A stretch of DNA of 64,000 nt from a virus. Taxonomy: Duplodnaviria; Heunggongvirae; Uroviricota; Caudoviricetes. Below the pieces are notes generated by a model. That model saw only the letters and a list, made by a program, of their open reading frames with translations. It made no database searches and was not told the origin of the DNA. Both the position numbers and the translations under genes were made by a program. The stretch is taken from positions 79,774-143,773 of the IMG/VR virus record IMGVR_UViG_3300013901_000006. The stretch is one strand, 5' to 3'. Below are positions 35,195 through 52,557 of this stretch, piece after piece (within the stretch, counting starts at the first letter, position 1; each line of letters begins with the position of its first letter).

Positions 35195-36133
35195 TTAGTT
35201 GTTACTATTGGTCAGAATATATTCACGAATAGCCGCTTGCGCCAAACCTTTAATCTTTGCAAGATTAACACTGGTAACCTTCTTCTTACGATAAAAGTCC
35301 CAGAAATTCTCTTCCATAAGCTCGTTCAAAACTTTTTGCATACACATACCGAAGAATTTACCATTGCGGCAATCAATTTCATCCATATCGAGAGCGATAA
35401 GAACTTTATTAACTTCCTTTTCGACAAAAGCAGGCGTACAAAACTTATCTACAAACTCTTTTTCAGTATCATTTTGGTTGACATTGGTCTTCTTAGTGGT
35501 TTTATTATGATGCCATTCATCGCGTACAATTTTAGCAACTTGTGGATTTCCCCACGGGTCACGAAGAACTGGATAAGTTTTAATAACAATACCTTCACCA
35601 ATAATACCAGAAGGAAGATTAAAAGTACAAGAATCTACATACTTATCAACATCATCCCAAGTCATATTATCAATGCGGGCAATGATAGGAACGCAACGAT
35701 GATAAATTTTACTTACTACTGGATACCATACATCATAATCAATATATTCACCGCTGTCAGTATCAAAAACATCAAAGATAAAGAAACCACCTTCAATATA
35801 CTGTTTAATGCTACCGACAAACTTGCGGCCATCCACTCCGCCAAGCCATTCACCATAAATAATATAGCTAGGATTGTCAAGCAACCAATCCTTTAAAGCA
35901 TTGATTTCAGTGTCATTAGAATTTGTAATATAGTATGCAAATCCAGCATTATCCTTCTCAATAGAAATCTCACGGGTACGAGAGCCACACGCAATTTTGC
36001 CCTCATCATCTACCCAAATGCTGGAATTGCTTCCGTCCATTTTCGGCTGAATTAAAACCGACTTACCAATGAAACCCTGAACTTCATTGCGAGTAGAGCG
36101 TTCAAGATGAATGTACTTGTTGAAATGTGACAT
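35195..36133 (-). CDS. RNA ligase, Rnl2-like nucleotidyltransferase
   Basis: Motif I KMDGSN (Rnl2 K-x-[DH]-G-x-N). Motif IV EGIVIK, then a VAKIVRD motif-V-like segment. Confidence 0.5.
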   Translation of the reverse strand: MSHFNKYIHLERSTRNEVQGFIGKSVLIQPKMDGSNSSIWVDDEGKIACGSRTREISIEKDNAGFAYYITNSNDTEINALKDWLLDNPSYIIYGEWLGGVDGRKFVGSIKQYIEGGFFIFDVFDTDSGEYIDYDVWYPVVSKIYHRCVPIIARIDNMTWDDVDKYVDSCTFNLPSGIIGEGIVIKTYPVLRDPWGNPQVAKIVRDEWHHNKTTKKTNVNQNDTEKEFVDKFCTPAFVEKEVNKVLIALDMDEIDCRNGKFFGMCMQKVLNELMEENFWDFYRKKKVTSVNLAKIKGLAQAAIREYILTNSNN

Positions 36134-36139
36134 GTTTTC

Positions 36140-36690
36140 CTCTTTCTCTCTTTCAACAATTACATTATATCATGCATTTTATAAAATTGCAAGAAAAATT
36201 TTTCTTCTCTTTTCTGTTTTCTTATAGTTATTTTTGCGTAGCAAAAATAACGTAATTCTTTTATCTTTTCTCTTCTTTATAATTTTTGCGTCACTGTAAG
36301 TGACGTAAAAGATAAATTAATTTAAAGATAATTTATTTTATAATTATATAAATAATATTATATTTGTCAATATTATTTCTTATTATATATAAAAATTATA
36401 AAGGATAAATAAACTAATTTAAAATAATTAATTAATTACATTAGTTTTACATTAGTTTTACATTATATACTATATATTATATTAATAATATTCTTATTAT
36501 ATATAATCTTATATAATTAGTCTTAAGGGGTAAACCCCTTAACAACCCAGTTATTAATTATAACGTAATTTTTCATTTTGTCAAGAGTTCTGTAAAAAAT
36601 TTTTTATAATAAAATTTATGCTAAAAATATTGTTGACTAATTTAATTTTATAGTTTATAATGTTCTCAACACGCAAACAAAAGAAAGGAA
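36140..36690. other. AT-rich divergent intergenic region with direct repeats and palindromes (regulatory hub / candidate origin)
   Basis: Tandem ACATTAGTTTT x2. Palindromes CGTCACTGTAAGTGACG and TTAAGGGGTAAACCCCTTAA. Several TTGAC-17-TATAAT promoters. Confidence 0.4.
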
Positions 36691-36693
36691 AAT

Positions 36694-37077
36694 ATGGAAC
36701 AGATTACAGCAGAAGCAGCTCGCCGCATTCGACAGCAGAGTGTAGTAGATAAAAAGAAAAAGGAACTGGAAGAAGCTCAAAATATTCCATTTTTTGAAGA
36801 GCTAACTGAGAAAGTAAAAGACGCGGCGTTCAATGGCGAAAGTAATGTACAGATTGGGCCGCATGAATCAGAATATTACCAAGAGATTATCGATAGTGGC
36901 AAGATTGTTCATAGTAAAGAGAAGCAACTTCCGCTAGACTGGAAAAAAGTTTTCAAGGTTTTTGAAGAGTCTCTTGGATATAAAGTTTCAATTGTGCAAT
37001 ATCCTGCGCAATTTCTTAAGTCCAATGGCCTTGATATGGTTACACTCAATATTGAGACTGCAACTGTATATTGGTAG
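36694..37077 (+). CDS. Hypothetical protein, first gene of the plus-strand early block
   Basis: Preceded by TTGACT-17-TATAAT (36636-36664) and an AAGAAAGGAAAATATG RBS. Confidence 0.4.
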   Translation: MEQITAEAARRIRQQSVVDKKKKELEEAQNIPFFEELTEKVKDAAFNGESNVQIGPHESEYYQEIIDSGKIVHSKEKQLPLDWKKVFKVFEESLGYKVSIVQYPAQFLKSNGLDMVTLNIETATVYW

Positions 37078-37083
37078 TAAAAT

Positions 37084-37605
37084 ATGAAGCACACGTTAAT
37101 TATGATGGCAGGCCCTGCGAGTTCAGGAAAATCTGTATTTGCAAAAATCATTAAAGATTCACATGATGATTGCGTTGTAGTTTCATATAAACAGATGGCA
37201 AAAGCAGCACTGGTCGCAAAAGAACCGCAACATTATGTAGATAAGCGATATATCGAAGTATTAAATAATATGCTTGAAACACATGAATATGTAATTGCTG
37301 ATAATTACAATATCAATGCAAATGAACGCAAAAAAATATTTGACAATATAAATATTGATAAATATAATATTATTTGTGTTTGGGTGGAAACGCCTCTTAA
37401 TGTTGCATTGAAGCGAAATGCACAACTAGATGAAAAGTGGCGAAGGTCGGAAGACTCTATAAAGCAAATGTATAAAATTAAAGTATCGCCGCAAGAACAA
37501 GAGCCTTTTAAAAAAGTAATTTTCATTTCAGAGCAAATGAATTATGCTATTGGAACAGATACAATGGAAATTCAAAATATTTTAGATACTCTTAAGGCTC
37601 TATAG
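37084..37605 (+). CDS. Polynucleotide-kinase-like P-loop kinase (T4 Pnk kinase-domain family), copy 1
   Basis: MMAGPASSGKSVFA Walker A. IADNYNINANERKKIF and VWVETPLNVALKRNAQ align to T4 Pnk ISDTNLNPERRLAW / VFDVPWTELVKRNSKRG. Confidence 0.5.
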   Translation: MKHTLIMMAGPASSGKSVFAKIIKDSHDDCVVVSYKQMAKAALVAKEPQHYVDKRYIEVLNNMLETHEYVIADNYNINANERKKIFDNINIDKYNIICVWVETPLNVALKRNAQLDEKWRRSEDSIKQMYKIKVSPQEQEPFKKVIFISEQMNYAIGTDTMEIQNILDTLKAL

Positions 37606-37657
37606 TACTTTGACAATTGAATATTTTATTTTAATTATTATTTAATAAAAGGAAATA

Positions 37658-38578
37658 ATGTTAAAATTTATTTGTATTTTAATTGCGGCAATGTTTATTG
37701 TTAATTTTCTTTGTAGTTTTACTAAAGAATATCGAGAAAGTAATAATGTTGGCATTAATCGAGCCATTTCAGTTGTAATTGCAGTAATTCTAATTGGTAT
37801 TTCATGTGTATATACACAAGACGTAGGCGAAGTTGTTGTACTTCGCTCTATTGGTGGTAGTCTCTCTGGTTACACAAGTGAAGCTGGTTTCCATTTTACT
37901 GCACCATGGAATGATACAATTTCGTTCGATACCCGTAACAATTTAATTAACTTTCATGGTTCAAAAACAGACTACTCTTATGATGGAGGTTCTGCGGAAG
38001 GCCCATATGTAACTGTAAACGATAAGTCTGGCTCCAAGGCGAATGTAGATATACAAGTCAATTACAGTCTAGACTCAAAGACTGCTGAGTATCTATATAC
38101 TGAATACGGAACGCAAGAGAACTTTACTAAGAACTATGCTTCCAATGACCTTCGCTCTGTAGCGCGTGAGGTGTCTGGTCAGTTTGACACAATCACTATG
38201 TTAACTGACCGCTCTCAATATACGAAAGCAGTCCAAAAAGCTCTAGAAAAGAAGTGGAAGAAAATTGGCCTAACTGTTGAGCAAGTCAGTGTGCAAGACA
38301 TTTCTTATGCTAAATCTATTACAGATGCCTATGCTGATTCTCAGGCAGCAGAAGTAGAAAAGGCTAAGGCTCAGAATCAACAAGAAACTGCCAAGATTAA
38401 GGGAGACACTAAAGTAATTGAAGCTACAAAGGAAGCAGAAGCTAATAAAGTCCTTAATGATTCATTAACTGATAATGTTCTTTCTCAGCAATATATTGAA
38501 GCTCTAAAAGAAATGTCTAAGAATGGCAATACTGTAGTAGTCCCACAAGGTTCAACTCCAGTAGTATCAACTAAATAA
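37658..38578 (+). CDS. SPFH (band-7/HflC-K-like) domain membrane protein
   Basis: N-terminal TM helices. VVVLRSIGGSLSGYTSEAGFHFTAPWNDTISFDTRNN matches the SPFH core. Coiled-coil C-terminus. Confidence 0.5.
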   Translation: MLKFICILIAAMFIVNFLCSFTKEYRESNNVGINRAISVVIAVILIGISCVYTQDVGEVVVLRSIGGSLSGYTSEAGFHFTAPWNDTISFDTRNNLINFHGSKTDYSYDGGSAEGPYVTVNDKSGSKANVDIQVNYSLDSKTAEYLYTEYGTQENFTKNYASNDLRSVAREVSGQFDTITMLTDRSQYTKAVQKALEKKWKKIGLTVEQVSVQDISYAKSITDAYADSQAAEVEKAKAQNQQETAKIKGDTKVIEATKEAEANKVLNDSLTDNVLSQQYIEALKEMSKNGNTVVVPQGSTPVVSTK

Positions 38579-38580
38579 CT

Positions 38581-38630
38581 AATAGCCTCAAAGTTTTTCT
38601 TGACTTTGAGGCTATTTTTTTATATACTTA
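38581..38630 (+). terminator. Intrinsic terminator whose loop carries the -35 of the next promoter
   Basis: TAGCCTCAAAGT-tttttcttgac-TTTGAGGCTA then TTTTTTT. TTGACT-17-TATACT is embedded. Confidence 0.6.
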
Positions 38631-38660
38631 TGCTAACAGAATCCAAGAGGAAGAGAGATT

Positions 38661-39044
38661 ATGGATGCAAATGTAGCAATGGTATGTGTCACGGTTATTT
38701 GCGTCGCGGCAATTATAGCTAAATGCTATATGGAACATTTGGCTGAAACTACTCGACGCATTAGGGCGAACGCACCAGAGCACCAACGCAATATCGATAA
38801 CGTTCCATACAATATGAACAATATCTGGAAGAAGAAGTAATGTTTAATATTATTTTATCATTTGCCGCAGGTTTTATAATTGGATATGCGGTGTGTTGTA
38901 TTCTTACTATTGGAAAGGATAACTAATGGCAGATTGCATTTTTGTTGCATATATCCTTGCTGTAATTGGATATGCATATTTTTCATTTAGCCGCAAATTT
39001 GAAAATATTCGATTCAATTTATATCGAATGTATCTTAATTTTTA
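38661..39044 (+). CDS. Cluster of three very small transmembrane peptide ORFs (59, 28 and 39 aa)
   Basis: MDANVAMVCVTVICVAAIIAKCY..., MFNIILSFAAGFIIGYAVCCILTIG..., MADCIFVAYILAVIGYAYFSF.... Each has a plausible RBS. Confidence 0.35.
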
Positions 39045-39538
39045 GTTGACTATTGACTTTATATAAATTATAATATAAACCAATAGAAAGAGGAATTATG
39101 CGTGATATTAATCGTATATATGATATTGTTGTAAAAATTCAAGACATGTGGGAGCACTATTCAGACCAACGTTTAGGTCAACTTATTGAAAATTATCTTG
39201 TAAAAGATGGAGAAGATTTGTTCTATATAGAAGATGAAGAACTTTCTCAACGTTTAACTGATAAACTCTCATGGATTGATTGGTAAAGATGAATATTACA
39301 GTGAAAGATTTTATTGATTGGCTTCGTATGGATACCGCTAATACCGGAAGTATGATTCGCTTTGAAGCATCAAATATTCCGTGCTTAAAGAGTCCAAGCA
39401 TATATTTTAAAGATATTGATGATAATATGACCATTGAATTAGAAAATGCATATGTACATTATTTTCATGTAGAATATAATGAAGATTATAGAATCTTTAC
39501 TTTTGTAATTTATATTTTGTAATTTATGTGGAGTTTTA

Positions 39539-40108
39539 ATGATTACTCAATATTCTCATGGTATCAATACAGAAGCAAATCCAAGCAACAATGTAATTGA
39601 TATTTATAAAAAGTGGAGCGCGGAAGAAGTGCGGGCTAGCCTTCAACCAAATCGTACTCCACTTGTAAATATTTGTCTCAATCTTGACCATGGATTCAAC
39701 GTTGGTTCTATTATTCGAGCATCAAATTGTTTCCTTGCCAAGGAGACTTACGTGGTTGGCCGCAAACGCTTTGACGCTCGTGGAGGTGTTGGATCCAAAA
39801 AATACGAACGCGTATATCATGCAGATACATTAGATGAAGTCCTTGAAGTTCTGCACCCTCTTGGATATACCATTTTTGCCGTAGATAATGTAGAAGAATA
39901 TAATCCGCAGAATATTTTTGATGTTGATATTCCAATGAAGTCTGCTTTCGTATATGGAAGTGAGGGTAATGGTTTGCCAAAAGATGCTATTGACAAATGC
40001 GATGAAATGGTATATATTAGGCAATATGGAAGTATTCGCTCACTAAATGTGGCACAAGCTGCCGCATGTTGTATGATGGAATATTCTAGACGTTATCAAA
40101 TGAGGTAG
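39539..40108 (+). CDS. SpoU/TrmH-family RNA 2'-O-methyltransferase (SPOUT)
   Basis: NICLNLDHGFNVGSIIRASNCF, YGSEGNGLPKDAI, and IRQYGSIRSLNVAQAAACCMMEY match SPOUT motifs I-III. Confidence 0.65.
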   Translation: MITQYSHGINTEANPSNNVIDIYKKWSAEEVRASLQPNRTPLVNICLNLDHGFNVGSIIRASNCFLAKETYVVGRKRFDARGGVGSKKYERVYHADTLDEVLEVLHPLGYTIFAVDNVEEYNPQNIFDVDIPMKSAFVYGSEGNGLPKDAIDKCDEMVYIRQYGSIRSLNVAQAAACCMMEYSRRYQMR

Positions 40109-40377
40109 CTATGAAATGGGAAGATTTATCACCAGAAGCAAGACTATATATTAAATTACAGCCGCATGTTTTTGCTAAGACTACGATTGCATCATTAATT
40201 GCTCTAATGGATAAATCAGTTTCTCTCCAAGAGAAAGCAAATTATATCGACCGTGCGGCAGATATTTTAAAGCTATGCGCAGTTTCAATCAAAAGCCATC
40301 CAGAGTTTGAAATTGTTATTGACAATACTCATAGTACGTAGTATTATATAAAATAAAGATAAGAAAGGATGTTTTAG

Positions 40378-40821
40378 ATGGCTGAGTTGACTAAGAGCGA
40401 CTATAGATACTTTGAAATGGCACATAGGGAAGCTGAAAAATCTACCTATGATACCTTTCATCTTGGATGCGTTCTAGTCTATAAAGGTCACATTATCGGT
40501 CGCGGAAGCAATTCCTCTAAAACTTCACCTATTCAGGCCAAATATAATCAGTTCAGGCAGTTCCGATATGGGCCGCAATTAGTAGCACATAAAAACCATG
40601 CTGAAATCAGCGCTATTAAGAGTGTACCTTATCAGGTAGATAAAGAGACTGATTGGTCAAAGGTTTCATGTTACATTTATCGTATCTCTAAGGGTCGAAA
40701 AAAGAATGTGGGTTTAGCTCGACCTTGTGAGGGATGTTTTCAGGCACTTATCGATAAAGGTATTCGTAACATCTACTATACTACAAATAATGGCTATGCG
40801 TATGAGGAAATTCTTGTATAA
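40378..40821 (+). CDS. CDA-fold deaminase (dCMP/cytidine/tRNA-adenosine deaminase family)
   Basis: HAE...PCEGC zinc-binding signature (HxE, PCxxC). Confidence 0.6.
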   Translation: MAELTKSDYRYFEMAHREAEKSTYDTFHLGCVLVYKGHIIGRGSNSSKTSPIQAKYNQFRQFRYGPQLVAHKNHAEISAIKSVPYQVDKETDWSKVSCYIYRISKGRKKNVGLARPCEGCFQALIDKGIRNIYYTTNNGYAYEEILV

Positions 40822-41236: not shown

Positions 41237-41311
41237 GGGCCATTAGCTCAGTTGGATTAGAGCCTGAAACTTCTATTTTCAAAGTCGCGCGTTCGAGTCG
41301 CGCATGGCTCA
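41237..41311 (+). tRNA. tRNA-Arg (anticodon TCT)
   Basis: Hand-folded cloverleaf. Acceptor GGGCCAT/ATGGCTC. D arm GCTC-AGTTGGATTA-GAGC. Anticodon stem TGAAA/TTTCA with loop CTTCTAT. T arm GCGCG-TTCGAGT-CGCGC. Confidence 0.75.
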
Positions 41312-41625
41312 CTTAGTAGACTGGCAATCAGTTAGTCTACGTTATTTAAAACAGCATTTTGAAAGGATTTATTGTGAAAATTCGTGATTGGGAAGACTTC
41401 GATGAAGAGGATAACTTTGAAAAATTTTCCCATAAGACAAAACTAATTCGCCAGCGCAAAGATGATACTTACAAAAGTAAGCGTCGTGAGAAGCGTGAGC
41501 GTCAAGAATTTGAAGAAAATGCTGCGAAGGGCGGGGAGTAATTCCTGCCTTTTTTTATTATAAAAAATAGTTGCCATTTGCCGCATAATCATATATAATA
41601 TATTTACCAAAAGAAAGAGGTAAGT

Positions 41626-42561
41626 ATGAATGAAGTAGATATGCTCCGCAATGATTCTCTTGTGCGGGAAAAGGATTTGGGAAACGGAATCTCGTCTTTC
41701 AATTTTTCCAATAAGTGCTTTTGGGATAAGAAGTGGACTACGGAGTCAATCAAGGCTCGCGGATTATTCTGTGATGTTAAAAATAACAATGTTGTTGCAC
41801 GTTCTTATAATAAGTTTTTCAATATTGGAGAGCGTCCTGAGACTGAAATGCGGAATCTTCGTACTACTTTTGCATATCCTGTGCAGGCATATGTGAAGTA
41901 TAATGGTTTTTTGGCAATCGTCTCAGCAGATAAGGATAATCCCGATAAGTTGTTCATCGCATCCAAGAGCACTAATGAAGGCCAGTTTGCGGGATACATT
42001 AAAAACATTATTAACTCTATGTTGAGCGAAGATGCGCAAAAGGATTTTGCAAACACCTTGCATAATCTTAATATCTCTGCTGTGTTTGAGTGTATTGACC
42101 AAGCGCATGACACGCATATTGTAGAATATTTCAGTCCGCATTTAGTTATGCTTGATTGTATTTATAATTCCTTTGAATATAAGCACATGTCATATGAGAA
42201 TATGAGAGAATTTGCATGTAAGTTTGGTTTTTTGTTTAAGGTTCGTTTTTCCATTTTAACAGATTGGGAAGATTTTACAAGTTTTATTGATTGGCATAAG
42301 GATGATAATGGGATTGAAGGATTTGTGTTTGAAGATGCTAATGGGTTCATGGTAAAGTATAAAACTTTATGGTATCGTTACTGGAAGCAGGTGCGTGGCG
42401 TTTTGCAGCAGGTCTGGAACGGACGTGATATTGATTCAATCAAGAATATCAATAACAAGATTAAGCCAGAGCACAAGCAGCCGCTTCTTGATTTCGTAGC
42501 TTCATGCCGCAATCGTGATGCGTGTCCATCAGTAATTGAATTCCGCAACTCTTTATCTTAA
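41626..42561 (+). CDS. RNA ligase of tRNA-ligase (Trl1/KxNG) type
   Basis: Motif I VKYNGF (K-x-N-G). Motif IV IEGFVFE. Motif V VKYKTLWY. 311 aa. Confidence 0.5.
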   Translation: MNEVDMLRNDSLVREKDLGNGISSFNFSNKCFWDKKWTTESIKARGLFCDVKNNNVVARSYNKFFNIGERPETEMRNLRTTFAYPVQAYVKYNGFLAIVSADKDNPDKLFIASKSTNEGQFAGYIKNIINSMLSEDAQKDFANTLHNLNISAVFECIDQAHDTHIVEYFSPHLVMLDCIYNSFEYKHMSYENMREFACKFGFLFKVRFSILTDWEDFTSFIDWHKDDNGIEGFVFEDANGFMVKYKTLWYRYWKQVRGVLQQVWNGRDIDSIKNINNKIKPEHKQPLLDFVASCRNRDACPSVIEFRNSLS

Positions 42562-43108: not shown

Positions 43109-43921
43109 ATGATTAAACTTGCAATTCCCTTTCAATTGAATGGAGAGTTAAATGATGATGTAAAAGAATTCAATATTCTTTTTTATAAATCTCGAAATTC
43201 AATTGAAGATTTGATTGAATTCGTTCAAGAGTATGAGGATACTCGCATTAATCTGGAATTCCCAGAAGGAATTCATATGCCGACAGTCAAATCAATTAAT
43301 AAAGTCTCTGATAATATTTATATTAAGGTTGCTCCTGCGGATATTCTTAAAGTTGTAGAGCTTAAAGAAAATAATTTTAAATTCTTTTTTAATCAAGATA
43401 TGCCGGTATCAACATACACAGCACTTGATGCCTTTTTCCGCATGGGTGTATCAGACGTATACATTGCAGATGACTTGTGCTATAATTTAACAGAAGTGCG
43501 GCAAATGTGTGAAAGTCATAACGTACAAATGCGGCTAGTCCTTAATAAGATTCCATGCACTACTTTTGACCGTGGAGTTAATCCCAAGAGTCCAATCTAT
43601 ATGCCTAAAGACTTTGAGCTTTTGGATGGATATTTTGATGTATTTGAATTTGAGTGCGGCCTACCGTATGACTGGGCTAAGTTCGATGTTCTATATCGAG
43701 CATGGTTTATCAATCATTATTGGCATGGTCAAATGAGCGAAATAAATGAAGATGTAGACCAGAATTTTCATTGTGACGCAATCCATCCTGATTTTACCCG
43801 CAATAAACTAAATTGTGAACGTAGATGCTGCAAAAGGGTGTCAAATAATTGCCGCAAATGTGAAGATTTTCTTGAGCTTGGTGAAGTATTGAAAGCTAAG
43901 AGAATTCGATTTACAAATTAA
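43109..43921 (+). CDS. Hypothetical protein with Cys-rich C-terminus
   Basis: 270 aa ORF with CERRCCKRVSNNCRKCEDF, behind a terminator-promoter cassette at 43040-43090. Confidence 0.35.
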   Translation: MIKLAIPFQLNGELNDDVKEFNILFYKSRNSIEDLIEFVQEYEDTRINLEFPEGIHMPTVKSINKVSDNIYIKVAPADILKVVELKENNFKFFFNQDMPVSTYTALDAFFRMGVSDVYIADDLCYNLTEVRQMCESHNVQMRLVLNKIPCTTFDRGVNPKSPIYMPKDFELLDGYFDVFEFECGLPYDWAKFDVLYRAWFINHYWHGQMSEINEDVDQNFHCDAIHPDFTRNKLNCERRCCKRVSNNCRKCEDFLELGEVLKAKRIRFTN

Positions 43922-44016
43922 TTGGGCAAATGATTATAAACTTTTGCCCATATTTTTTATAAATATATAAGCAATCGTCTAACTGTCGTATAGGATTTAA
44001 GGAGAATTTTATTCAA

Positions 44017-44796: not shown

Positions 44797-46023
44797 GAAA
44801 GTAGTTGACAATATTTGAAATGTTTGGTAATATATTATTGAAAGTTAAGAAGTGGGCAATTCCAGTAATTGCCGCATTAATCGTTGTGGTTGGGGGCCTA
44901 ACAGTATGGGTTAACACTACCTTCCAAGGTCAACTTTGGTTCGACAAAATGACAAATCAAAGAACTCCACCTCCTGAGAATCACTGTATCAGGGTGTATT
45001 CCGCAGGAGAGCTCGTTGGAGACTATGATGGACATTATTCTGTAGAACAATTTGATGACCACATTGTTCTTATCAATCATGATAAACATGATGATAAAAC
45101 TGAAATCTACGGTGAAACCGCAGTGATTGTAGACGAAGATTAAAAGGAGAAAATTAATGGTTGAATCTTATGGTATGAATTTTAATGCTGCACTAACGCA
45201 GGATAAAGATGGTAAGGTGTCTCTTGGTGTACACGTGACCGATTCGGACGGCCTGGATATTGACAAGAATGAATCTGGCAGCGATATTCCAAAAGTCATT
45301 GAAAATCTTTGCAGTGGTCTGATTAAAGACCTAACAGTTGTATCTAATGGCCGCAAAGCCAAAAAGGAGAAGGAAGATGCGGAGAAGCGTCGTGCGGCCA
45401 AAGCTGAGAAGCAGAAGAAGATTGCAGACCTTAAAGCACAGGCAGAAGCTCTACAAAAAGAGATTGCCGCACTGGAATCTGAAAAAACGTCCTCCACGCC
45501 CAAGACTACAGTGAGTGCTCTAGATTCACTTTCCAAGGACTTTGAATCTCTGCTGGACGATTCAACTATGAAAATTTTCCGCAAGATGCTGTTCTAAAAT
45601 TTATCTTGCAAACCCATATATAAAGTTATATAATATACTTAAAGAAAAGGAAGGAGATACAGGATGTTCGTAGGTGACAAGTTTTATAACATTGATACGG
45701 AACGCGACTTTGACGCTTGCTTGAAAGAGAACGGTTTCGACCCTGCGGAAATTAAAAACTATGCTATCTCCTTCCACGTTTCTAATCGCGCATGTTGCGT
45801 AGAAGGCCTACTTGGTGACGATTGGGCGGAAGTATCTCATGCGATTCAACAGGAGTGTGATGACTTGCGGAATGAGGTGGATAACCTTGAATCTCGTTCT
45901 CGCAAAGGCAATACTCGTGCTGACATTGCTAAACGTCTTAGCACTATTCTTGAGAATATTTATGACCTTGCTTTATCGAATCAAATTTATGACCCCGATG
46001 AACTTTAAGTAATATTTTTTTCT

Positions 46024-46052
46024 TGACAAAAAGGAAAATTAACTATATAATA
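46024..46052 (+). promoter_or_regulatory. Consensus TTGACA-17-TATAAT promoter feeding a ~100-nt transcript ending at the 46120-46165 terminator
   Basis: TTGACA aaaaggaaaattaacta TATAAT. No ORF before the downstream hairpin and T-run. Confidence 0.55.
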
Positions 46053-46119
46053 TATTTGAAATCTTTGGACAAAGATGTATAATTTTGTTGTACAACTTTT
46101 TATATTATATAGTGGTGCT

Positions 46120-46165
46120 AGAGCCTACAGTGTTCCAGAAATATTGTAGGCTCATTTTTCTTTTG
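46120..46165 (+). terminator. Intrinsic terminator (GAGCCTACA...TGTAGGCTC + TTTTTCTTTT)
   Basis: 9-bp perfect stem followed by a T-run. Confidence 0.6.
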
Positions 46166-46170
46166 GCAAA

Positions 46171-46240
46171 GCCAGTTTAGTATAACAGTAATACATCGCT
46201 CTTGTAAAGCGAAGCAGACAGGGCAGCACTGTCAACTGGC
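46171..46240 (+). tRNA. tRNA-Thr (anticodon TGT)-like gene with non-canonical D- and T-loops
   Basis: Perfect acceptor GCCAGTT/AACTGGC + TCCA. D stem GTAT/ATAC. Anticodon stem TCGCT/AGCGA with loop CTTGTAA. T stem GACAG/CTGTC, but the T loop is GGCAGCA and the D loop lacks GG. Confidence 0.45.
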
Positions 46241-46481
46241 TCCAATATTTTAGTATTCTATGAGGATAATATAAAAGGAGATTCGACCACTCCAAGCAAT
46301 GCACTTGTATTATTCTCATAGAGTGCTAACCTTAGACACTCTCCAAGTGATAGTAGAGCGGAATTTGACCCCGTCTGTGCTATCCCAAGTTATAAGCGAT
46401 TCGGGCAGTCGCTATACAAATTTGCCCACTTTAGATTATTAGATAGGCTACATAGGGAGTAGCTACCTCATGGAAAAGTGA

Positions 46482-46537
46482 ATATCCACCACCTGCCTAT
46501 CTATTGTATTTAGTGGATAGGAAAGTGTGGATATATG
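46482..46537 (+). promoter_or_regulatory. Stable hairpin sequestering the RBS and start codon of the HNH endonuclease gene
   Basis: ATATCCAC...CCTATC-loop-GATAGG-AAAGT-GTGGATAT. The 3' arm ends at the ATG (46535). SD-like AGGAAAG lies inside the 3' arm. Confidence 0.5.
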
Positions 46538-47260
46538 CTTAAATGTATTATTTGTGAAAAAGATTTTGTTATTAGACCAAATGGTAAAATGGGCGGGGCA
46601 AATCGTCAAATTTGTTATAATTGCTTGCCTGAAGATATTAGTTCAAAACAAGAAAGACGAAAAGCTACGAATTTTCTTATTAGTCAAAAGCTTCAAAAAG
46701 AAAAAACAAGTCGTGGCTGCGATATTTGTGGTTACAATAGTTGCGGAGCAGCATTAGAGTGGCATCATTATAATAGCGATAAAGATTTTAATCCAAGTGC
46801 TATTCCAGTATGCAATTGGGAAACATTGAAGAAATATCGTAAAGAAACTCAAAAATGTCAATTATTATGTGCAAATTGCCATAGAGAAATACATTATAAA
46901 AAATATTGGGGAAATTTTATTATGCCAATTGATAGTGGCCAAAGTGAAAATTTCAGAAAAGAAGTTTGTGATTATTACAAAGAAAACCTAAACATAAATA
47001 AAACTAGCGTTTATTTCCATAAAAATCGCGAAACAATTAAAAATATTCTGCTGTATTGTGGAGTTAAGATAACTAAAGAAGACAATCATAAATCTGTCAG
47101 TATGATAAATATTAAAACAAATGAAATTATTAAAACATTTTACAGTTTAAATGAAGCTAGTGATTTTTTAAATAAAGGTAAAGGTGGCATTACCCATATA
47201 TCTGATGCTTGTTCCGGGAAAAGAAAGACTGCTTACGGGTACAAATGGCGTTATGAATAA
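46535..47260 (+). CDS. HNH homing endonuclease
   Basis: Zn-ribbon CIICEK...CYNC. HNH core EWHHYNSDKDFN...CANCHREIHYKKY. Confidence 0.7.
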   Translation: MLKCIICEKDFVIRPNGKMGGANRQICYNCLPEDISSKQERRKATNFLISQKLQKEKTSRGCDICGYNSCGAALEWHHYNSDKDFNPSAIPVCNWETLKKYRKETQKCQLLCANCHREIHYKKYWGNFIMPIDSGQSENFRKEVCDYYKENLNINKTSVYFHKNRETIKNILLYCGVKITKEDNHKSVSMINIKTNEIIKTFYSLNEASDFLNKGKGGITHISDACSGKRKTAYGYKWRYE

Positions 47261-47343
47261 TATTTTTCATTTTTACTTTTAAAAATTATTTGACAAATTA
47301 TCAAATAATTTGATATAATATAGTTAACAAAAGGAGAAACACT

Positions 47344-47500
47344 TCTTTTGAACATAGGGTTCCTAAACCAAAAGAATTAGGTGCGGCTTAAGGTTTCAGA
47401 CTACAGATAAAAGAAACTTAGTGATTAAATAAATGATGCGAAAGAACGTCTGAAAAATCACGATTAAAATATGGTTTGCGGTTATCCTAAAACCGCACCT
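47344..47500 (+). ncRNA. Candidate structured small RNA (~160 nt) closed by a 10-bp long-range helix and U-tract
   Basis: UUAGGUGCGG (47374-83) pairs with CCGCACCUAA (47488-97). Internal helices UUUCAGAC/GUCUGAAA and GUGAU/AUCAC. Followed by AAAUUUUUC. Promoter at about 47293-47321. Confidence 0.4.
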
Positions 47501-47857
47501 AAAATTTTTCTTGACTTCTAGTTGAGAATAATGTACAATATATTTAGAAGAAAAGGGGGGAAAAGGATAGTCAACAGTACCATCAACAAACCAGTGACCC
47601 TGCGGCGAATATTAATGAGCCAATACCCATAAGATGTAATATCGAGTACGCTGTTAGGTTGATTAAATTTTTCTTCCAAATAAGTTTAAACGCCAAGAGA
47701 AAGAGGTAAAATGGCACAGTCTATCGAGTCTATGGAGCAGCGTTATCAGATGCTTATTAACCGAAAGGGTAAGAATTCAGAAAATGTAGGCATTATGCGC
47801 AAACTTCGCCGCAAGATTAACAAGGCTAAGTCAGGTATCATTCTTTCTTAATTTTAT

Positions 47858-47980
47858 ATGCGTGATAGGGATTCAGTTACTTCATATCAATAGCAGAGAT
47901 ATAGGCTGTCGGTTCGAATCCGACCATCTACGGATGTAGCTCAACAGGTAGAGCGATGTCATTTTATAGTCTGAATCCAA
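47858..47980 (+). ncRNA. Y-RNA-like tRNA-like RNA, copy A (closing helix + T-arm + acceptor-like hairpin + D-arm)
   Basis: 5' box AUGCGUGAUAGGGAUUCAGUUACUUC. GGAUUCAG (47869-76) pairs with CUGAAUCC (47971-78). Enclosed: GUCGG-UUCGAAU-CCGAC, CUACGGAUGUAG, and GCUC-AACAGGUA-GAGC. Confidence 0.5.
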
Positions 47981-48204
47981 GATTTCCGCATATTTTTTCT
48001 TGACTTTTGGTTATATATATTATATAATATATTTAGTTCAAAGGAGATAACATGAAATACTGCATTTGCCGTGAAAAAACTACGCATTGCCTGTCTATTC
48101 GAGTTGATACTGACTGCTCGCCTGTACGCTTTGATGTACTTTCCATTCATGACACTTTCGAAGAGGCAGATGCGGCACTTCGTTTTTATCTTGATTAATC
48201 TATT

Positions 48205-48290
48205 TTATAGATAGATTAATTTGAACATTCCGCAGCCAGAGCCAATCTGGACCGCCGCATACTTGAAAGGAAGCGGGTTTGAATGTTTTA
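48205..48290 (+). ncRNA. Candidate small structured RNA between a 48-aa ORF and tRNA-Lys
   Basis: Terminal pairing GAACAUUC/GAAUGUUU encloses hairpins CCAGA-gccaat-UCUGG and CCGC-N14-GCGG. Speculative. Confidence 0.25.
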
Positions 48291-48291
48291 T

Positions 48292-48364
48292 GCGCCCTTA
48301 GCTTAGTTGGTAAAGCGGTGGACTCTTAATCCAAAGACCGTCAGTTCGAATCTGACAGGACGCA
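48292..48364 (+). tRNA. tRNA-Lys (anticodon CTT), two non-Watson-Crick pairs
   Basis: Acceptor GCGCCCT/AGGACGC (C4·A69). D GCTT-AGTTGGTA-AAGC. Anticodon stem GTGGA/TCCAA (G27·A43) with loop CTCTTAA. T arm GTCAG-TTCGAAT-CTGAC. Confidence 0.5.
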
Positions 48365-48379
48365 CCTATTTTATTTCGC

Positions 48380-48452
48380 TCGTCTGTAGTTCAGCTGGTA
48401 GAACATTTGGCTGTTAACCAAAATGTCGTAGGTTCGAGTCCTACCGGACGAG
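48380..48452 (+). tRNA. tRNA-Asn (anticodon GTT)
   Basis: Acceptor TCGTCTG/CGGACGA. D GTTC-AGCTGGTA-GAAC. Anticodon stem TTTGG/CCAAA with loop CTGTTAA. T arm GTAGG-TTCGAGT-CCTAC. Confidence 0.7.
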
Positions 48453-48465
48453 CAAAATAAAATAT

Positions 48466-48494
48466 TTGACAAAATCATTTCGGTAGTATATAAT
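48466..48494 (+). promoter_or_regulatory. TTGACA-17-TATAAT promoter for a ~150-nt non-coding transcript
   Basis: TTGACA aaatcatttcggtagta TATAAT. No ORF until 48683. Confidence 0.5.
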
Positions 48495-48499
48495 ATAAA

Positions 48500-48655
48500 T
48501 ATAAAATAACAAGTCTTCAAGAATCTTAACTCATACGGTTTGGCCGTCGATAGAGGAACTACTAAGGACGGGACACCTGAATGCTAGCTAATACAGGGAG
48601 CAGACAGCCAGTATTGTTCTTGATGTAATCGAATGAGCTATCTTGTTGTTTTATA
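48500..48655 (+). ncRNA. Candidate structured small RNA (~150 nt)
   Basis: Ends pair (AUAACAAG / CUUGUUGUUUU) followed by a U-tract. Internal helices CCGUC/GACGG, CUCAU/AUGAG, GCUAGC. Confidence 0.35.
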
Positions 48656-49349
48656 TTTATATTATTGGTCGAAAGGTTTCAAATGAAATTATATCTGAAA
48701 CACTATACTAACAAAATTTTATGGTCAGAGCCAAAAGATGATGATGAAGCATATAAAGATATTCAAAATTGGTTAACAGAACATTATCCAATTAATCATT
48801 ATATGCGGCATTGGGTAGATAATGCTGGTGTTCATTGGATTGATTTTGGTTCGCACACAGATTTCTTTTGCATTGAAGGAGAGTAGGCAATGTCTTACAA
48901 CAAGGAAGAAGATTTGAAGTTGAAATACGCTTATATTCCCGATGATGCGGCAAATGCCCCTGCTTCTAAAAAGAAGAAGCCGTCTCCTAAGAAAGCCAAC
49001 CATAAACATAATTATGATAAAAGTATTATCATCAATTATTATGATAAATATACTGGTAAGTGGACCTATTCATATAGGAATATCTGCACTGTTTGCGGCC
49101 GCATTGGTGATTTTAAAGATAAAGATGGAATCATCGCAAAGACTTTCCCGCACATCGGTACTTGTTGGTTTGGCTTTTCTGTTGCTTTTGGATATAATGC
49201 AGAATTTGAGGAGTTTACCGAATGGTCAAAAACTTGGTATCCTGTAATTGTTTGGAAAGACTATCAGCCTTTATCAGATAAGTTTATTCCTAACGAGTTT
49301 TTTGATGAACTTAAAATCGGAACAGATAAAGTAGATTAATAATGTACCT

Positions 49350-49434
49350 CGGGAGTTGATGGAATTGGCATACATAGCGGCCTCAAAAGCCGTCGGTTAT
49401 TGTAACCATACGAGTTCGAATCTCGTACTCCCGA
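49350..49434 (+). tRNA. tRNA-Leu (anticodon CAA), class II with long variable arm, CCA encoded
   Basis: Acceptor CGGGAGT/ACTCCCG-A-CCA. D loop GAATTGGCATA. Anticodon stem GCGGC/GCCGT with loop CTCAAAA. Variable arm GGTTA-TTG-TAACC. T arm ACGAG-TTCGAAT-CTCGT. Confidence 0.7.
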
Positions 49435-49442
49435 CCAGAACT

Positions 49443-49525
49443 GCTACGGTATCCCATTAAAGACATGGACCGGCCTGTAAAATCGGTACCTTAAGGTTGA
49501 CTAGGAGCGTTACCTAGACGTAGCA
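49443..49525 (+). tRNA. tRNA-Tyr (anticodon GTA)-like class II gene with non-canonical T-loop, CCA encoded
   Basis: Acceptor GCTACGG/ACGTAGC (G7·A66). Anticodon loop CTGTAAA is identical to bacterial tRNA-Tyr. Variable arm ACC-TTAA-GGT. T stem CTAGG/CCTAG but loop AGCGTTA. D loop lacks GG. Confidence 0.4.
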
Positions 49526-49541
49526 CCAATTGTATTTTATA

Positions 49542-49616
49542 ATGCGTGACAGAAAATCAGTTACTTCTATTTTAAAAATAAGATATTGGTTCGATTCCAA
49601 TTACCGCATAAAAACT
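49542..49616 (+). ncRNA. Y-RNA-like tRNA-like RNA, copy B (minimal: closing helix + hairpin + T-arm)
   Basis: 5' box AUGCGUGACAGAAAAUCAGUUACUUC. GAAAAUCAGUU (49552-62) pairs with AACUGAUUUU (49605-14). T-arm AUUGG-UUCGAUU-CCAAU. Confidence 0.45.
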
Positions 49617-49659
49617 GATTTTAGTATTTCCGCGTTTAATTTTTATTCTGGTATGTGAT

Positions 49660-49930
49660 TGAGTTTTAGTTACTTCGAAGATATATATTATGTTTTAAAT
49701 TAATTAAAATTTAAATTAAAAGAACCGGCTTTTACGTCAGACTATAACGGCGTAACAAAAAACTGGTAACTTATACTAAAACTAGTATTTCCATACCTTC
49801 CTCTTTCTCTTGGATAAGTGATTGAACCGCATAGTTACTTCATATTTTTGGTATAATATAATTCAGTCTATGTGATATTATTTCCTTATCTTAAACATTT
49901 TGCGTGATTGGTTCAAGAGATACTTCATAA
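49660..49930 (+). repeat. Three decayed partial copies of the GUGAU...AGUUACUUC 5' box
   Basis: GTGATTGAGTTTTAGTTACTTC (~49657), GTGATTGAACCGCATAGTTACTTCATAT (~49822), TGCGTGATTGGTTCAAGAGATACTTCAT (~49893). None has a following T-arm. Confidence 0.4.
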
Positions 49931-49984
49931 ATATTTTATGACATTTTTTTTTTGCTCTCTCTTGGGCATACTTTCCGCTTTAAT

Positions 49985-50012
49985 AGGGCCTTATGGCCCT
50001 ATTTTTTTTTAT
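49985..50012 (+). terminator. Intrinsic terminator (AGGGCC-ttat-GGCCCT + T9) fused to a TTGACT promoter
   Basis: Hairpin plus T-run directly followed by TTGACT-N17-TATAAT. Confidence 0.6.
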
Positions 50013-50155
50013 TGACTTTATACATACAATATTATATAATATATATAAAGAAAGAGAAAACTCTTATAGTAGCTGTATTGCATCATGTACTAGAGGACTA
50101 TTTGATAATGCATATGGCTATTCTTGGCGATATGTATGACAAGGAGGTGGTGCCA

Positions 50156-50703
50156 ATGTCAATCTGGATTATTTCAGATTCTCATTGAATCAATTTGGTC
50201 ATAAGAATATAATAACGTACTGTAACAAATCTCGTCCTTTCGACACTGTTGAGGATATGAACGAAGCAATTATCAATAGATGGAATGACCGCATTTCTCC
50301 TGATGATATTGTATATCATCTTGGTGATGTTTGTATGGGACAACTTGATACAATCGATAAGTACCTTCCTCGACTGAATGGTCATGTTACTCTCATTAAG
50401 GGGAACCATGACACGAAGGGCCGCATTGCCCGCATCCAAGAGGTTGTCGGTTGGGAAGTCCTCAACATTGAATGTATCCGCTATAATGATATTAACTTTC
50501 TTATGATGCATGAGAAGTCAGAAGACATGCATGGTAATTCTGAGAATGTCATTCTTTACGGTCATGTTCATGACGCTGCGCCGCATGGTTTGCAGCCTGA
50601 TTGGACATACCATGTTGGACTTGATACTAACAACCTAGCTCCTGTCAACCTCCATGATATTTGGATTGATGTCCTAGAGCAGCGAATTAAGACTGGTGAA
50701 TAA
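50156..50703 (+). pseudogene. Calcineurin-like metallophosphoesterase interrupted by an 8-nt insertion just after the DxH motif
   Basis: AAGGAGGTG RBS then MSIWIISDSH-stop. Out of frame it continues NQFGHKNIITYCNKSRPF...GDV...GNHD...GHVHD. Removing TGAATCAA (50186-93) restores ISDSHFGHKNII, the family consensus. Confidence 0.55.
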
Positions 50704-51534
50704 TGGAAGTTAAGCACAAAGTTCAAAGGATTTGCGGCAATTGCCGATATTATTGGCATAAATCATGTTATCGATTTCCGCCGCAAATTGTTTTGGACTA
50801 TGATTATAATGTGAGGACGGTTCACCCTTCGCCGCAGTCAGGAGACAGATGTGGTGAATGGTCTATTCATCCTAAATTGGAGCAAAAATGAAATGCAAGA
50901 AGATTTGTTGGACTTGTAAGTATATGCGTGGCAGATATACCGATTCGTTCTATGGCGGGTCTATTGGAAATTGCGCATATGATTCTGTAATGTTGGGACA
51001 TTTTGATGAATCAAGAGATAATATGCCGCTTAAAAGCGGTGATGATACTTGCGGCAATTGGGCACCAAACGAATATTTTGCATCTATAGATAATTTTTCC
51101 TAAATTTTATCTTGACTCTTGGGTAATTATATTATATAATATAATTAAAGAAGTTGAGAGAGAGGTTTTGGACATGGACTTCAATATCTGCGCTAACTGC
51201 AAGCATTTTCTTACAACTGATTCTGATTATATGTTTGGACATTGTATCAAGGAGTTTGCTGATGCTGGGTTAGACATTCATGAAATCAAGTCTATGATTG
51301 GACCTATTGGTAATATTCTCGGTGATGATTATATGTGTGCGGATGGTGAGCTCAATGATTAACAATAGTTTCGATGGTTGGACGAAAGAGCAACTTGACC
51401 AGTACAATGAACTTTGTATTGACTATCCGCAATGGGCAGTTGACATGCTTATTGACCTCTATGGCCCAAATGAACTTTTTGACGGTATCGTAATGGACCT
51501 TGAAGAGTACTCTTATATGCTTTAATATTGGAAT

Positions 51535-51607
51535 ACCTGTGTAGCACAATTGGTTAGGGCAGTTGACTTATAATCGACCGATGCGGGTTCAAGTCCCGAC
51601 ACAGGTA
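51535..51607 (+). tRNA. tRNA-Ile (anticodon TAT), unusual
   Basis: Perfect acceptor ACCTGTG/CACAGGT. D GCAC-AATTGGTTA-GGGC. Anticodon stem GTTGA/TCGAC with loop CTTATAA. T arm GCGGG-TTCAAGT-CCCGA (G·A at 49-65). Confidence 0.5.
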
Positions 51608-51790
51608 CCCGACATGGGATAGATAACCAGTGGGGAACTGGGTCCGCCTGCTAAGCGGAACGTACTTGTAAATAATAAGTATCCGGGTCGGAACCGGATT
51701 ATCCCGCCAATGTTTATTCCCGCGCCTATACGCGGTGGCTTTCATGGTAGTGCCGAAAACAACCATTGCGGCAGAATAGGCAACACCGCA
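51608..51790 (+). ncRNA. GC-richer structured RNA (~180 nt) between tRNA-Ile and tRNA-Ser
   Basis: Local hairpins CCGC-cugcuaa-GCGG, UCCGG-gucggaa-CCGGA, CGCG-ccuaua-CGCG, UGCGG-N15-CCGCA. Long-range GGGAUA/UAUCCC. No ORF. Confidence 0.4.
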
Positions 51791-51795
51791 TACTT

Positions 51796-51884
51796 GGAGA
51801 GTTGGCCGAGCTGGTCGATGGCACTTGTCCTGAAAACAAGCAGGCGCTGGTAACGTCTCTAGAGTTCGAATCTCTAACTCTCCG
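51796..51884 (+). tRNA. tRNA-Ser (anticodon TGA), class II, CCA encoded
   Basis: Acceptor GGAGAGT/ACTCTCC-G-CCA. D GCC-GAGCTGGTCGAT-GGC. Anticodon stem CTTGT/ACAAG with loop CCTGAAA (C33). Variable arm. T arm TAGAG-TTCGAAT-CTCTA. Confidence 0.7.
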
Positions 51885-51888
51885 CCAT

Positions 51889-51962
51889 GGTCATGTAGCT
51901 CAGTTGGTAGTAGCAGCGGACTGAAAATCTGCGGGTCGCTTGTTCGATTCAAGCCGTGACCA
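51889..51962 (+). tRNA. tRNA-Phe (anticodon GAA), CCA encoded
   Basis: Acceptor GGTCATG/CGTGACC-A-CCA. D GCTC-AGTTGGTAG-TAGC. Anticodon stem GCGGA/TCTGC with loop CTGAAAA. T arm GCTTG-TTCGATT-CAAGC. Confidence 0.75.
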
Positions 51963-51974
51963 CCAATAAATACC

Positions 51975-52010
51975 CTGTAGGGCAACTTCTTTTGAGGTTG
52001 CCCTATTTTT
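51975..52010 (+). terminator. Intrinsic terminator after the tRNA cluster, fused to the next promoter
   Basis: TAGGGCAAC-ttcttttga-GGTTGCCCTA + T7, then TTGACT-17-TATAAT. Confidence 0.65.
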
Positions 52011-52074
52011 TTATTGACTTTTACCGCATAATCATATATAATATATATAAAGAAAGCCAAGAGAAGGAGAAAAG

Positions 52075-52557
52075 ATGGCTACTCTTTATATTCTCGCAGC
52101 TATTCCAGCCGCAGGAAAGACAACTTGGGCGCATGAGCATCATTCTGAGCTTGATGCCAAGATTATCTCGCGCGATAACATTCGTTTCAACTATATGGCA
52201 AATGACCCTGATTTTCTTCCTTCCATGGATTATTTCAAGTATGAGAAGGATGTCGAGCGATGCTTCTATGACCAGATTAATTGGGATTTGTGTGTAAATG
52301 ATATGAACGTCATCGCTGATGCCACTCATATCTCTTGGAAGAGTTTAAAGAAAACTGTTGAGCATTGCGGCAAAAACGCGGACAAGGTTATTCTTGTATA
52401 CTTCAATCGTGGTCTTGATATTGCCTTGCCGCAGAACGCGAAGCGTGATGGCGTTGAGCATGTTCCCGAGGAAGTAATCAAGCGTATGTGGAAGAACCGC
52501 TATCAGCCTGCTCGTGCAAAGGCCGCAGGTCTTGTTGATGAATATATGATTGTGTAG
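52075..52557 (+). CDS. pnk: Polynucleotide 5'-kinase (T4 Pnk kinase-domain homolog), copy 2
   Basis: [22 protein letters not shown] aligns to the T4 Pnk [38 protein letters not shown], and [12 protein letters not shown] match NRDDYRQ, ISDTNL, and VPIDVLRSMYKSM. No phosphatase domain. Confidence 0.65.
   Translation: [160 protein letters not shown]

Follow-up and report, generated by a model that had tools for sequence, protein, structure and literature searches.

The DNA analysed here, referred to as the window, is a stretch of 64,000 nucleotides (nt; positions 79,774 to 143,773 of the IMG/VR virus record IMGVR_UViG_3300013901_000006, Caudoviricetes), and the subject of this analysis is a cluster of putative RNA-repair genes that it carries around an island of tRNA genes. 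The window is made up of two arms, with leftward transcription in 1-36,133 and rightward genes from 36,694 onward, which originate from a 560-nt divergent region, and the cluster straddles the switch between them. The initial annotation, made from the sequence alone, listed kinases, a phosphoesterase, ligases, further RNA-related enzymes, tRNAs and Ro60 with Y-like RNAs within about 17 kb. Profile hidden Markov model annotation of each open reading frame (ORF), as proposed there, gave Pfam/PHROG matches for all parts, and every gene on the list was found at its position and in its family (Table 1). PADLOC defence models returned nothing relevant. The span of 17 kb did not hold, as the nucleotidyltransferase and Ro60 genes lie before 35195; the real span of the cluster is 29931-52557, and all of the RNA-related genes of the window are inside it.

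Table 1. Window positions of the cluster features and of two replication-module genes discussed in the text
Feature	Position	Strand	Remarks
Guanylate-type kinase	5022-5654		Replication module
ATP DNA ligase	23089-24123		Replication module
RlaP-family Pol-beta nucleotidyltransferase	29931-30818	-	73 nt downstream of Ro60, same strand
Ro60 orthologue	30892-32328	-	TROVE domain and vWA domain with DVSGS MIDAS motif
Y-like RNA copy 1	32468-32598	-	Directly upstream of Ro60; TTGACT-17-TATAAT promoter; T-arm-like hairpin
Rnl2-like ATP-dependent RNA ligase	35195-36133	-	Nucleotidyltransferase domain and helical C-terminal domain
KinA, AAA_33/KTI12-type P-loop kinase	37084-37605	+	P-loop intact, RDxxR replaced by SYKQM
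SpoU-class RNA 2'-O-methyltransferase	39539-40108	+	PF00588 at 1.1e-26
CDA-fold zinc deaminase	40378-40821	+	PF00383 at 2e-13; phrog_174 'dCMP deaminase'
tRNA-Arg(UCU)	41237-41312	+	
Rnl1/Trl1-family RNA ligase	41626-42561	+	Stand-alone adenylyltransferase domain; PF09511
tRNA-like gene	46171-46241	+	UGU anticodon loop, atypical T-loop; Rfam only, RF00005 44.9 bits
Y-like RNA copy 2	47856-47993	+	YrlA-like: permuted T-arm and D-arm modules
tRNA-Lys(CUU), tRNA-Asn(GUU)	48292-48453	+	
tRNA-Leu(CAA)	49350-49437	+	
Tyr(GUA), marginal class-II candidate	49443-49528		Relaxed ARAGORN; not in Rfam at E <= 1
Y-like RNA tandem array, four copies	49541-49985	+	49541-49636, 49650-49797, 49812-49891, 49898-49985
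YfcE-type metallophosphoesterase	50156-50703	+	Metallophos_2; phrog_547 at 1e-36
tRNA-Ile(UAU), tRNA-Ser(UGA), tRNA-Phe(GAA)	51534-51965	+	Terminator 51977-52006
Ser(GCU), marginal class-II candidate	51616-51709		Relaxed ARAGORN; not in Rfam at E <= 1
KinB, stand-alone Pnk-type polynucleotide 5'-kinase domain	52075-52557	+	Own promoter

The protein at 35195 had been described as an Rnl2-like ligase by its KMDGSN motif, and both family and fold were borne out. It matched PF09414 (E 1.3e-17) and phrog_548 (1e-39), and K31 (in PKMDGSN), E95, E180-G181 and K201, the motif set of the family, were invariant across 43 homologues. In the AlphaFold2 model (predicted local distance difference test score, pLDDT, 92) the C-terminal domain is all-helical (helices 204-309), and the top Foldseek matches in the PDB were full-length T4 Rnl2 (2hvr and 2hvq, E 4e-14, template modelling score 0.49). 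By sequence profile, the closest solved ligase was Naegleria NgrRnl (Rnl5) and not Rnl2, and 'Rnl2-like' is a fair label for the modelled fold. The second ligase, at 41626, was singled out for KYNGF and EGFVFE and called Trl1-type, which also holds. It matched PF09511 at E 5.6e-40 (138 bits), and KYNGF, AVFEC, EGFVF and KYK (motifs I, III, IV and V) aligned to Trl1 of Candida glabrata and Chaetomium. The closest solved relatives were fungal Trl1 ligase domains (9qw7 at 5.8e-13, and 6n0v), not T4 Rnl1, and the score against TIGR02308 was 29.7 bits, with a cut-off of 242.

Just downstream of the Trl1-type ligase, at 43109-43921 (+), lies a gene for a 270-aa protein without a family match. It is among the best conserved proteins of the cluster, with 79% identity where the ligase has 60%. 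In its model (pLDDT 95), four invariant cysteines come after a TIM barrel, and fold searches with it returned generic TIM barrels only.

For the two predicted T4-Pnk-like 5'-kinases, here KinA and KinB, the family assignment stands in both cases, while the Pnk catalytic set was found in KinB and not in KinA. Both matched AAA_33/KTI12 and phrog_505 ('polynucleotide kinase'), their best solved relative was the tRNA-dependent kinase PSTK, and both are single-domain proteins of 160-173 aa without a fused haloacid dehalogenase (HAD; DxDxT) 3'-phosphatase domain. KinB, whose own motifs are GKT, RDNIR and DATH, aligned to T4 Pnk (1ly1) at the P-loop GK(T/S) and RDxxR, and to Capnocytophaga Pnkp1 (4xrp) at the P-loop, RDxxR and DAT(N/H), the alignment to Pnkp1 being weak. 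Across the approximately 1,300 representatives of the KinB family recovered by exhaustive search, G14, K15, R33, D34, R37, D82, T84 and R124 were invariant, which we take to be the catalytic set known from mutational work on T4 Pnk. In that enzyme, K15, D35, R38 and R126 are essential. KinB has every element of a Pnk-type kinase: GK(S/T), the Asp and Arg of the acceptor site (RDxxR), DxT and the Arg of the lid.

In KinA, the change lies in the region of residues 31-49 (37174-37230), where the window lineage has the segment VVSYKQMAK, compared with IKRDNCRMY in relatives of about 50% identity. A hidden frameshift as the source of the missing RDxxR was tested and ruled out. TIGR04075 matched KinA alone, and weakly (24 bits vs 750). 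A gene for an SPFH/Band 7 membrane protein (37658-38578, +) lies between KinA and the SpoU methyltransferase; the protein is about 80% identical in nearly all relatives, and in one relative the reading frame of KinA continues into this gene.

The metallophosphoesterase predicted at 50156 was right in family and in the position of its ATG, which is preceded by a strong Shine-Dalgarno sequence, but its reading frame is not intact. The frame reads MSIWIISDSH and is broken after 10 codons by TGA (CAT TGA), and the remainder of the gene is in the -1 frame, from 50185 to 50703. The ATG frame contains DxH (as SDSH) and the 50185 frame contains GD, GNHD, HE and GHVH, and no single reading frame has the complete set of metal motifs (DxH, GD, GNH[DE], H, GHxH). 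By comparison with intact genes and fused homologues (consensus SDxH(F/I)GH), the break was defined as an 8-nt frameshifting insert, TGAATCAA, with the stop codon first, directly after the His codon of DxH. A second interrupted allele type carries TGACTAAC at the same place. The same break was present in independent assemblies, and both interrupted types occurred in several assemblies, with an intact gene in most relatives (SDTHFSHKNII). In their gene bodies, both interrupted alleles hardly differ from intact alleles of sister phages, therefore the break sits in an exchanged 5' cassette. Slippage of tRNA-His in the P site at CAU_UGA was also considered, and the base-pairing check gave no re-pairing in the -1 or +2 frame, which makes simple slippage an unconvincing route. 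The phosphoesterase may be recoded, truncated or dead.

The link between these enzymes comes from relatives in which they are fused. Beyond the phage family, the Trl1-type ligase is closest (37-43% identity) to the C-terminal domains of 726-754-aa fusions with the architecture AAA_33 kinase - Metallophos - RNA_lig_T4_1, which were found in Staphylococcus phage PT94, a contig of an Eisenbergiella metagenome-assembled genome and Saccharibacteria chromosomes. The Eisenbergiella contig (stretch 6881-10954) carries a 731-aa fusion with RtcB two genes upstream, and the 726-aa fusion of Saccharibacteria (8765-10945) lies among unrelated housekeeping genes. From the kinase side, two representatives of the KinB family are kinase and Metallophos_2 fusions whose C-terminal domain is 37% identical to the phosphoesterase of the window (E 8e-30 and 2e-32); they surfaced only in the exhaustive search, as the word-indexed search gave only close stand-alone relatives. 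As these activities are joined in single polypeptides in relatives, KinB, the phosphoesterase and the ligase would belong to one end-healing and sealing pathway, and the fusions are the strongest computational evidence for such a pathway, apparently split here into separate genes. The proposed kinase, phosphoesterase and ligase logic is supported by them and, judged from homologous sequences, has good comparative support. The further statement that the activities are spread over separate genes and duplicated is accurate, although this is not unusual for phages. About 25 IMG/VR contigs (approximately 80-148 kb), with proteins 45-85% identical to those of the window, are syntenic with it from Ro60 to KinB.

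Three more enzymes are found in the cluster. The minimal nucleotidyltransferase predicted at 29931 turned out to be of the RlaP type, with a borderline match to PF10127 (23.7 bits vs a cut-off of 23), a match to phrog_388 at 2e-12 and the Pol-beta motif NGSMNYG...SDVD (GS...DxD) in its translation. RlaP is reported to add 1-2 nucleoside monophosphates to damaged RNA 3' ends (PMC12776372). The SpoU/TrmH family of the methyltransferase was likewise confirmed; its best PDB match was TrmH (1v2x, 2.3e-8), followed by 7edc and TrmL among the others, while its scores against the NCBIfam models of RlmB, TrmH and TrmL were all far under the cut-offs. By sequence, it appears closest to TrmH (tRNA Gm18). 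The CDA-fold deaminase also belongs to the family assigned to it. It matched TadA only weakly and at the N-terminus, it is doubtful as a kit member, and it may instead serve the nucleotide metabolism linked to ThyX (dTMP synthesis), ThyX being encoded in the window.

Ro60 and Y-like RNAs had been proposed, and both are present. The Ro60 protein matched PF05731 (1.4e-12) and, across its full length, phrog_850 (7.5e-32), and tblastn matched it to annotated phage Ro-like proteins, including that of Thermus phage phiLo. Six Y-like RNAs share one architecture, which consists of a closing helix of 5-8 bp with a bulged U, an asymmetric internal loop and a second helix of 8-10 bp. Its 5' side has the conserved strings GUGAU and (A)GUUACUUC, and its 3' side has AUUUCC. 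The motif occurred seven times, compared with 0.4 expected by chance, and five of the seven occurrences were within the six copies. The four-copy array lies between tRNA-Leu and an intrinsic terminator (49982-50003), just before the phosphoesterase gene, and arrays of 4-7 units were found at the same place in most related contigs. In 26 distinct end-modules, 97.6% of the cells pair and 11 of the 16 pairs show changes on both sides, to which no shuffle or slide was comparable. Helix 1 was partly selected by the extraction rule; helix 2, which was not, shows covariation in 6 of its 8 pairs.

The Y-like family is absent from Rfam, with none of the six copies reaching the gathering score; only copy 2 matched the Rfam YrlA model at all (31.8 bits, under the gathering score of 69). 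A copy adjacent to Ro60 was sought in the relatives and none was found, so this copy is specific to the window lineage. Phage Ro60 binding to phage Y-like RNAs and to the host polynucleotide phosphorylase (PNPase) has been described for phiLo (PMC12135203). The copies described here do not contain the GNCGAA / GGUCCGA Ro-binding motif and have GUGAU / UUUCC instead. Because this differs from the GNCGAA/CGAA of bacteria and phiLo, binding of the Y-like RNAs by Ro60 can only be inferred.

The count of about 9 tRNA genes was a fair one: eight are firm (seven from ARAGORN and one from Rfam) and two more are marginal at relaxed thresholds. The other relaxed ARAGORN calls were mostly spurious and were not kept, and the Ser(GCU) candidate lies inside a segment that is conserved in relatives. 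Within 46023-52042 (+), the region of tRNAs, Y-like RNAs and kit genes is cut into short units by three strong intrinsic terminators and by eight promoters that agree with the sigma-70 consensus at 11-12 of 12 positions. The tRNAs and Y-like RNAs share promoter-to-terminator units, and there is a separate promoter for KinB and another for the phosphoesterase.

The noncoding stretch that follows the tRNA-like gene (46241-46535) is 83-88% identical in relatives, which is above most of the proteins, and it had no Rfam match. An HNH/NUMOD1 endonuclease gene (46535-47260) comes after this stretch here and before its core (46318-46432) in six relatives; it appears mobile, because its position varies. 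The intergenic segments 47540-47700, which is preceded by a near-consensus promoter, and 41312-41626 have 77-83% nucleotide identity across relatives and may be additional small RNAs or leaders.

Taken together, the stretch probably encodes a split, multi-gene kit for RNA end healing and sealing, along with phage tRNAs and a Ro60/Y-RNA particle, and 29.9-52.6 kb would, as part of this best explanation, probably be the early accessory arm of the phage. By analogy with known systems, counter-defence against tRNA-cleaving toxins is a reasonable inference for its purpose, and the RNA substrates and order of steps would be as follows. Host ribotoxins, such as anticodon nucleases and similar metal-independent RNases, would leave 2',3'-cyclic-phosphate and 5'-OH ends. 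The 5'-OH would be phosphorylated by KinB, the 3' phosphate opened or removed by the YfcE-type metallophosphoesterase, and nucleotides lost from the 3' end refilled by the RlaP nucleotidyltransferase. Loop breaks could then be sealed by the Trl1/Rnl1-family ligase and duplex nicks by the Rnl2-fold ligase. The TrmH-like methyltransferase would add 2'-O-methyl groups to tRNA-shaped substrates, damaged or misfolded RNAs would be bound by Ro60 and the Y-like RNAs, and lost tRNA species would be replaced by the phage tRNAs.

Several observations weigh against this explanation. The loss of the acceptor Asp/Arg from KinA is confined to the window lineage, in a frame that is otherwise intact, and the DxH metal ligands of the phosphoesterase would be included only through recoding; both proteins may be impaired in this phage. 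Unrelated or unknown genes (the SPFH protein, the TIM-barrel protein and the HNH endonuclease) lie scattered among those of the kit, and none of the parts reached an equivalog-level cut-off in NCBIfam. ORF scans of the 64-kb window found no Hen1, RtcA or RtcB, and no 2H cyclic phosphodiesterase or Tpt1 domain in any ORF scanned. As 2H and Tpt1 are missing from the window, the Trl1-type pathway in its strict form, with a 2'-PO4 junction as a requirement, is incomplete here. In addition, the rare-codon identities of several tRNAs (AGA, AUA, UUG) fit plain codon supplementation too.

It is also conceivable, though unlikely, that the genes serve mainly in RNA maturation, modification and turnover, for example in the processing and 2'-O-methylation of polycistrons of phage tRNAs and Y RNAs, with Ro60-Y RNA recruiting the host PNPase so that RNAs are degraded or remodelled, as has been suggested for Thermus phage phiLo. 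The shared transcription units of the tRNAs and Y-like RNAs, the closeness of the SpoU protein to TrmH, the YrlA RNAs being substrates of tRNA enzymes and the reported phiLo complexes of Ro60, Yrl and PNPase (PMC12135203) would all suit such a role. However, tRNA transcripts of the bacterial type can be processed without a 5'-kinase or an ATP-dependent ligase, and both the fusions of kinase, phosphoesterase and ligase and the RtcB gene nearby in relatives point towards the healing and sealing of ends.

There is a rather small chance that no concerted pathway exists, and that the region is a mosaic accessory arm, partly decaying, whose genes have shared early expression and frequent cassette exchange in common. 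KinA without RDxxR, the phosphoesterase frameshifted inside a swapped 5' cassette, the differing position of the HNH endonuclease among relatives and the splitting of the kit by unknown genes, with kit genes having their own promoters, could be read in this way. Against a mosaic, the gene set and order persist across contigs whose proteins are only 45-85% identical, and KinB, both ligases, RlaP and Ro60 are intact with their catalytic motifs. That DNA or nucleotides are the substrates of the kinases, phosphoesterase and ligases (deoxynucleoside monophosphate (dNMP) phosphorylation, DNA end processing, nick sealing) is very unlikely: phrog_139 (dNMP kinase) matches KinA in the P-loop only (E 7e-4), PF09414 ligases are related to DNA ligases and the deaminase resembles dCMP deaminases, but the best structural and sequence relatives of both ligases are RNA ligases, KinB carries the polynucleotide-kinase RDxxR motif, and the window has ThyX besides its own guanylate-type kinase and ATP DNA ligase, and because these last two sit in the replication module, the initial annotation's own counter-case of dNMP kinases and DNA-specific ligases does not hold.

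The observations on the Y-like RNAs and the phosphoesterase also allow a speculative reading, which we consider doubtful. The tandem Y-like RNAs, defined by GUGAU / GUUACUUC / UUUCC, present in 4-7 copies per genome in most related contigs and co-transcribed with tRNAs, might be a new sequence family of Ro60 partners, which would link Ro60 to the split Pnkp-like healing and sealing enzymes by serving as scaffolds or decoys with a tRNA shape. Separately, the phosphoesterase might be recoded, with ribosomes shifting by -1 or briefly bypassing the 8-nt insert, which begins with UGA. If the recoding were true, end healing would be conditional.

Phage RNA-repair systems have been described that contain tRNAs, RtcB, Rnl1 and Rnl2 in any combination, polynucleotide kinases, phosphoesterases and RlaP, and in a subset of them a ROT/TROVE protein is paired with a tRNA-like RNA (Iyer et al. 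2021, Viruses 13:63, PMC7824862). In that paper, such sets are traced to Burroughs and Aravind 2016, which it cites. The cluster is a further instance of these kits, with the same inventory of tRNAs, Rnl1/Rnl2-type ATP-grasp ligases, Pnk, phosphoesterase, RlaP and TROVE. It differs in that the survey was of jumbo phages, whereas the family here is one of phages of about 144 kb from metagenomes only; it has an extra TrmH-like methyltransferase and tandem Y-like RNA arrays, and the window is without an RtcB, 2H, Macro or KptA component.

With T4 Pnk and Rnl1, which counter PrrC, the cluster has in common the 5'-kinase set of P-loop, RDxxR, DxT and Arg and a ligase of the PF09511 family. Fungal Trl1 is a closer relative of the 41626 ligase than T4 Rnl1 is, and 3' end healing would here be carried out by a metallophosphoesterase, in place of the HAD-type domain (DxDxT) that T4 Pnk has fused to it. 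The bacterial Pnkp and Pnkp1/Rnl/Hen1 systems have the same three chemistries. In contrast to Pnkp, the activities here are on separate genes up to 10 kb apart and not on one polypeptide, and the ligase is of PF09511, not the Pnkp ligase-like domain; the split form has a precedent in Pnkp1/Rnl/Hen1. Compared with fungal and plant Trl1, ligase motifs I, III, IV and V align and a P-loop kinase partner is present, but the domains are unfused here and lack the 2H cyclic phosphodiesterase and Tpt1 partners. The cluster is therefore not a T4 Pnk bifunctional enzyme, a fused Pnkp/Hen1 or a complete Trl1 pathway, and it would still follow the same chemical logic. Of the likeness to T4, Pnkp/Hen1 and Rtc that had been suggested, this shared logic remains, while the phosphatase is not of the T4 HAD type and Hen1 and RtcB/A are not present in the window.

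Ro60/YrlA ribonucleoproteins (Chen et al. 2014, PMC4201824; phiLo, PMC12135203) share with the system described here the TROVE and vWA domains, one RNA that adjoins Ro60, a closing stem with a bulged pyrimidine, a large internal loop and, in some copies, mimicry of the T-arm and D-arm. The 5' motif is GUGAU...GUUACUUC here, with UUUCC on the 3' side, and GNCGAA/CGAA in those particles, and here five of the six copies are 15-18 kb from Ro60, among tRNA genes, and tandem arrays are formed.

The source lineage of this gene set is a phage of about 144 kb from anaerobic (gut-type) metagenomes. An identical copy of the Trl1-type ligase protein was found on a 143,773-bp European Nucleotide Archive metagenome contig and in several other assemblies, and no deposited phage gave a nucleotide match when 7.4 kb of the region was compared by megablast with 50,697 phage records. 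At the protein level, its relatives point to Firmicutes-type phages. The window has a G+C content of 35.5%. Its leftward arm encodes an anaerobic ribonucleotide reductase NrdD with an NrdG-type activase, which points to an anaerobic host, and a guanylate-type kinase, together with a replication set of DNA polymerase III alpha with an intein, RecJ, a primase and a DnaB-like helicase, and further ThyX, an ATP-dependent DNA ligase, GyrA and a split GyrB.

Selfish elements are abundant in this replication arm. A group I intron (Rfam, 56 bits) adjoins the split NrdD (750-1078 and 993-3567, both on the - strand), the intein is inside DNA polymerase III alpha (5727-10835, -), and GyrB (26227-29440, -) is split around a GIY-YIG endonuclease gene (26755-27711), with two more GIY-YIG genes present.

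That phages use the supply and repair of tRNAs for counter-defence is an established concept, and the value of the present findings is incremental apart from the Y-like RNA family, which is the most original element, with moderate novelty compared with low novelty for the kit. The separate genes provide clean natural 'fission' counterparts of the kinase-phosphoesterase-ligase fusion enzymes. Ro60, RlaP and six Y-like RNAs beside healing and sealing enzymes form a compact system for the relation between phage Ro60 and RNA repair, and the full RNA-repair inventory of jumbo phages is also present in a widespread family of phages of about 140 kb from anaerobic metagenomes.

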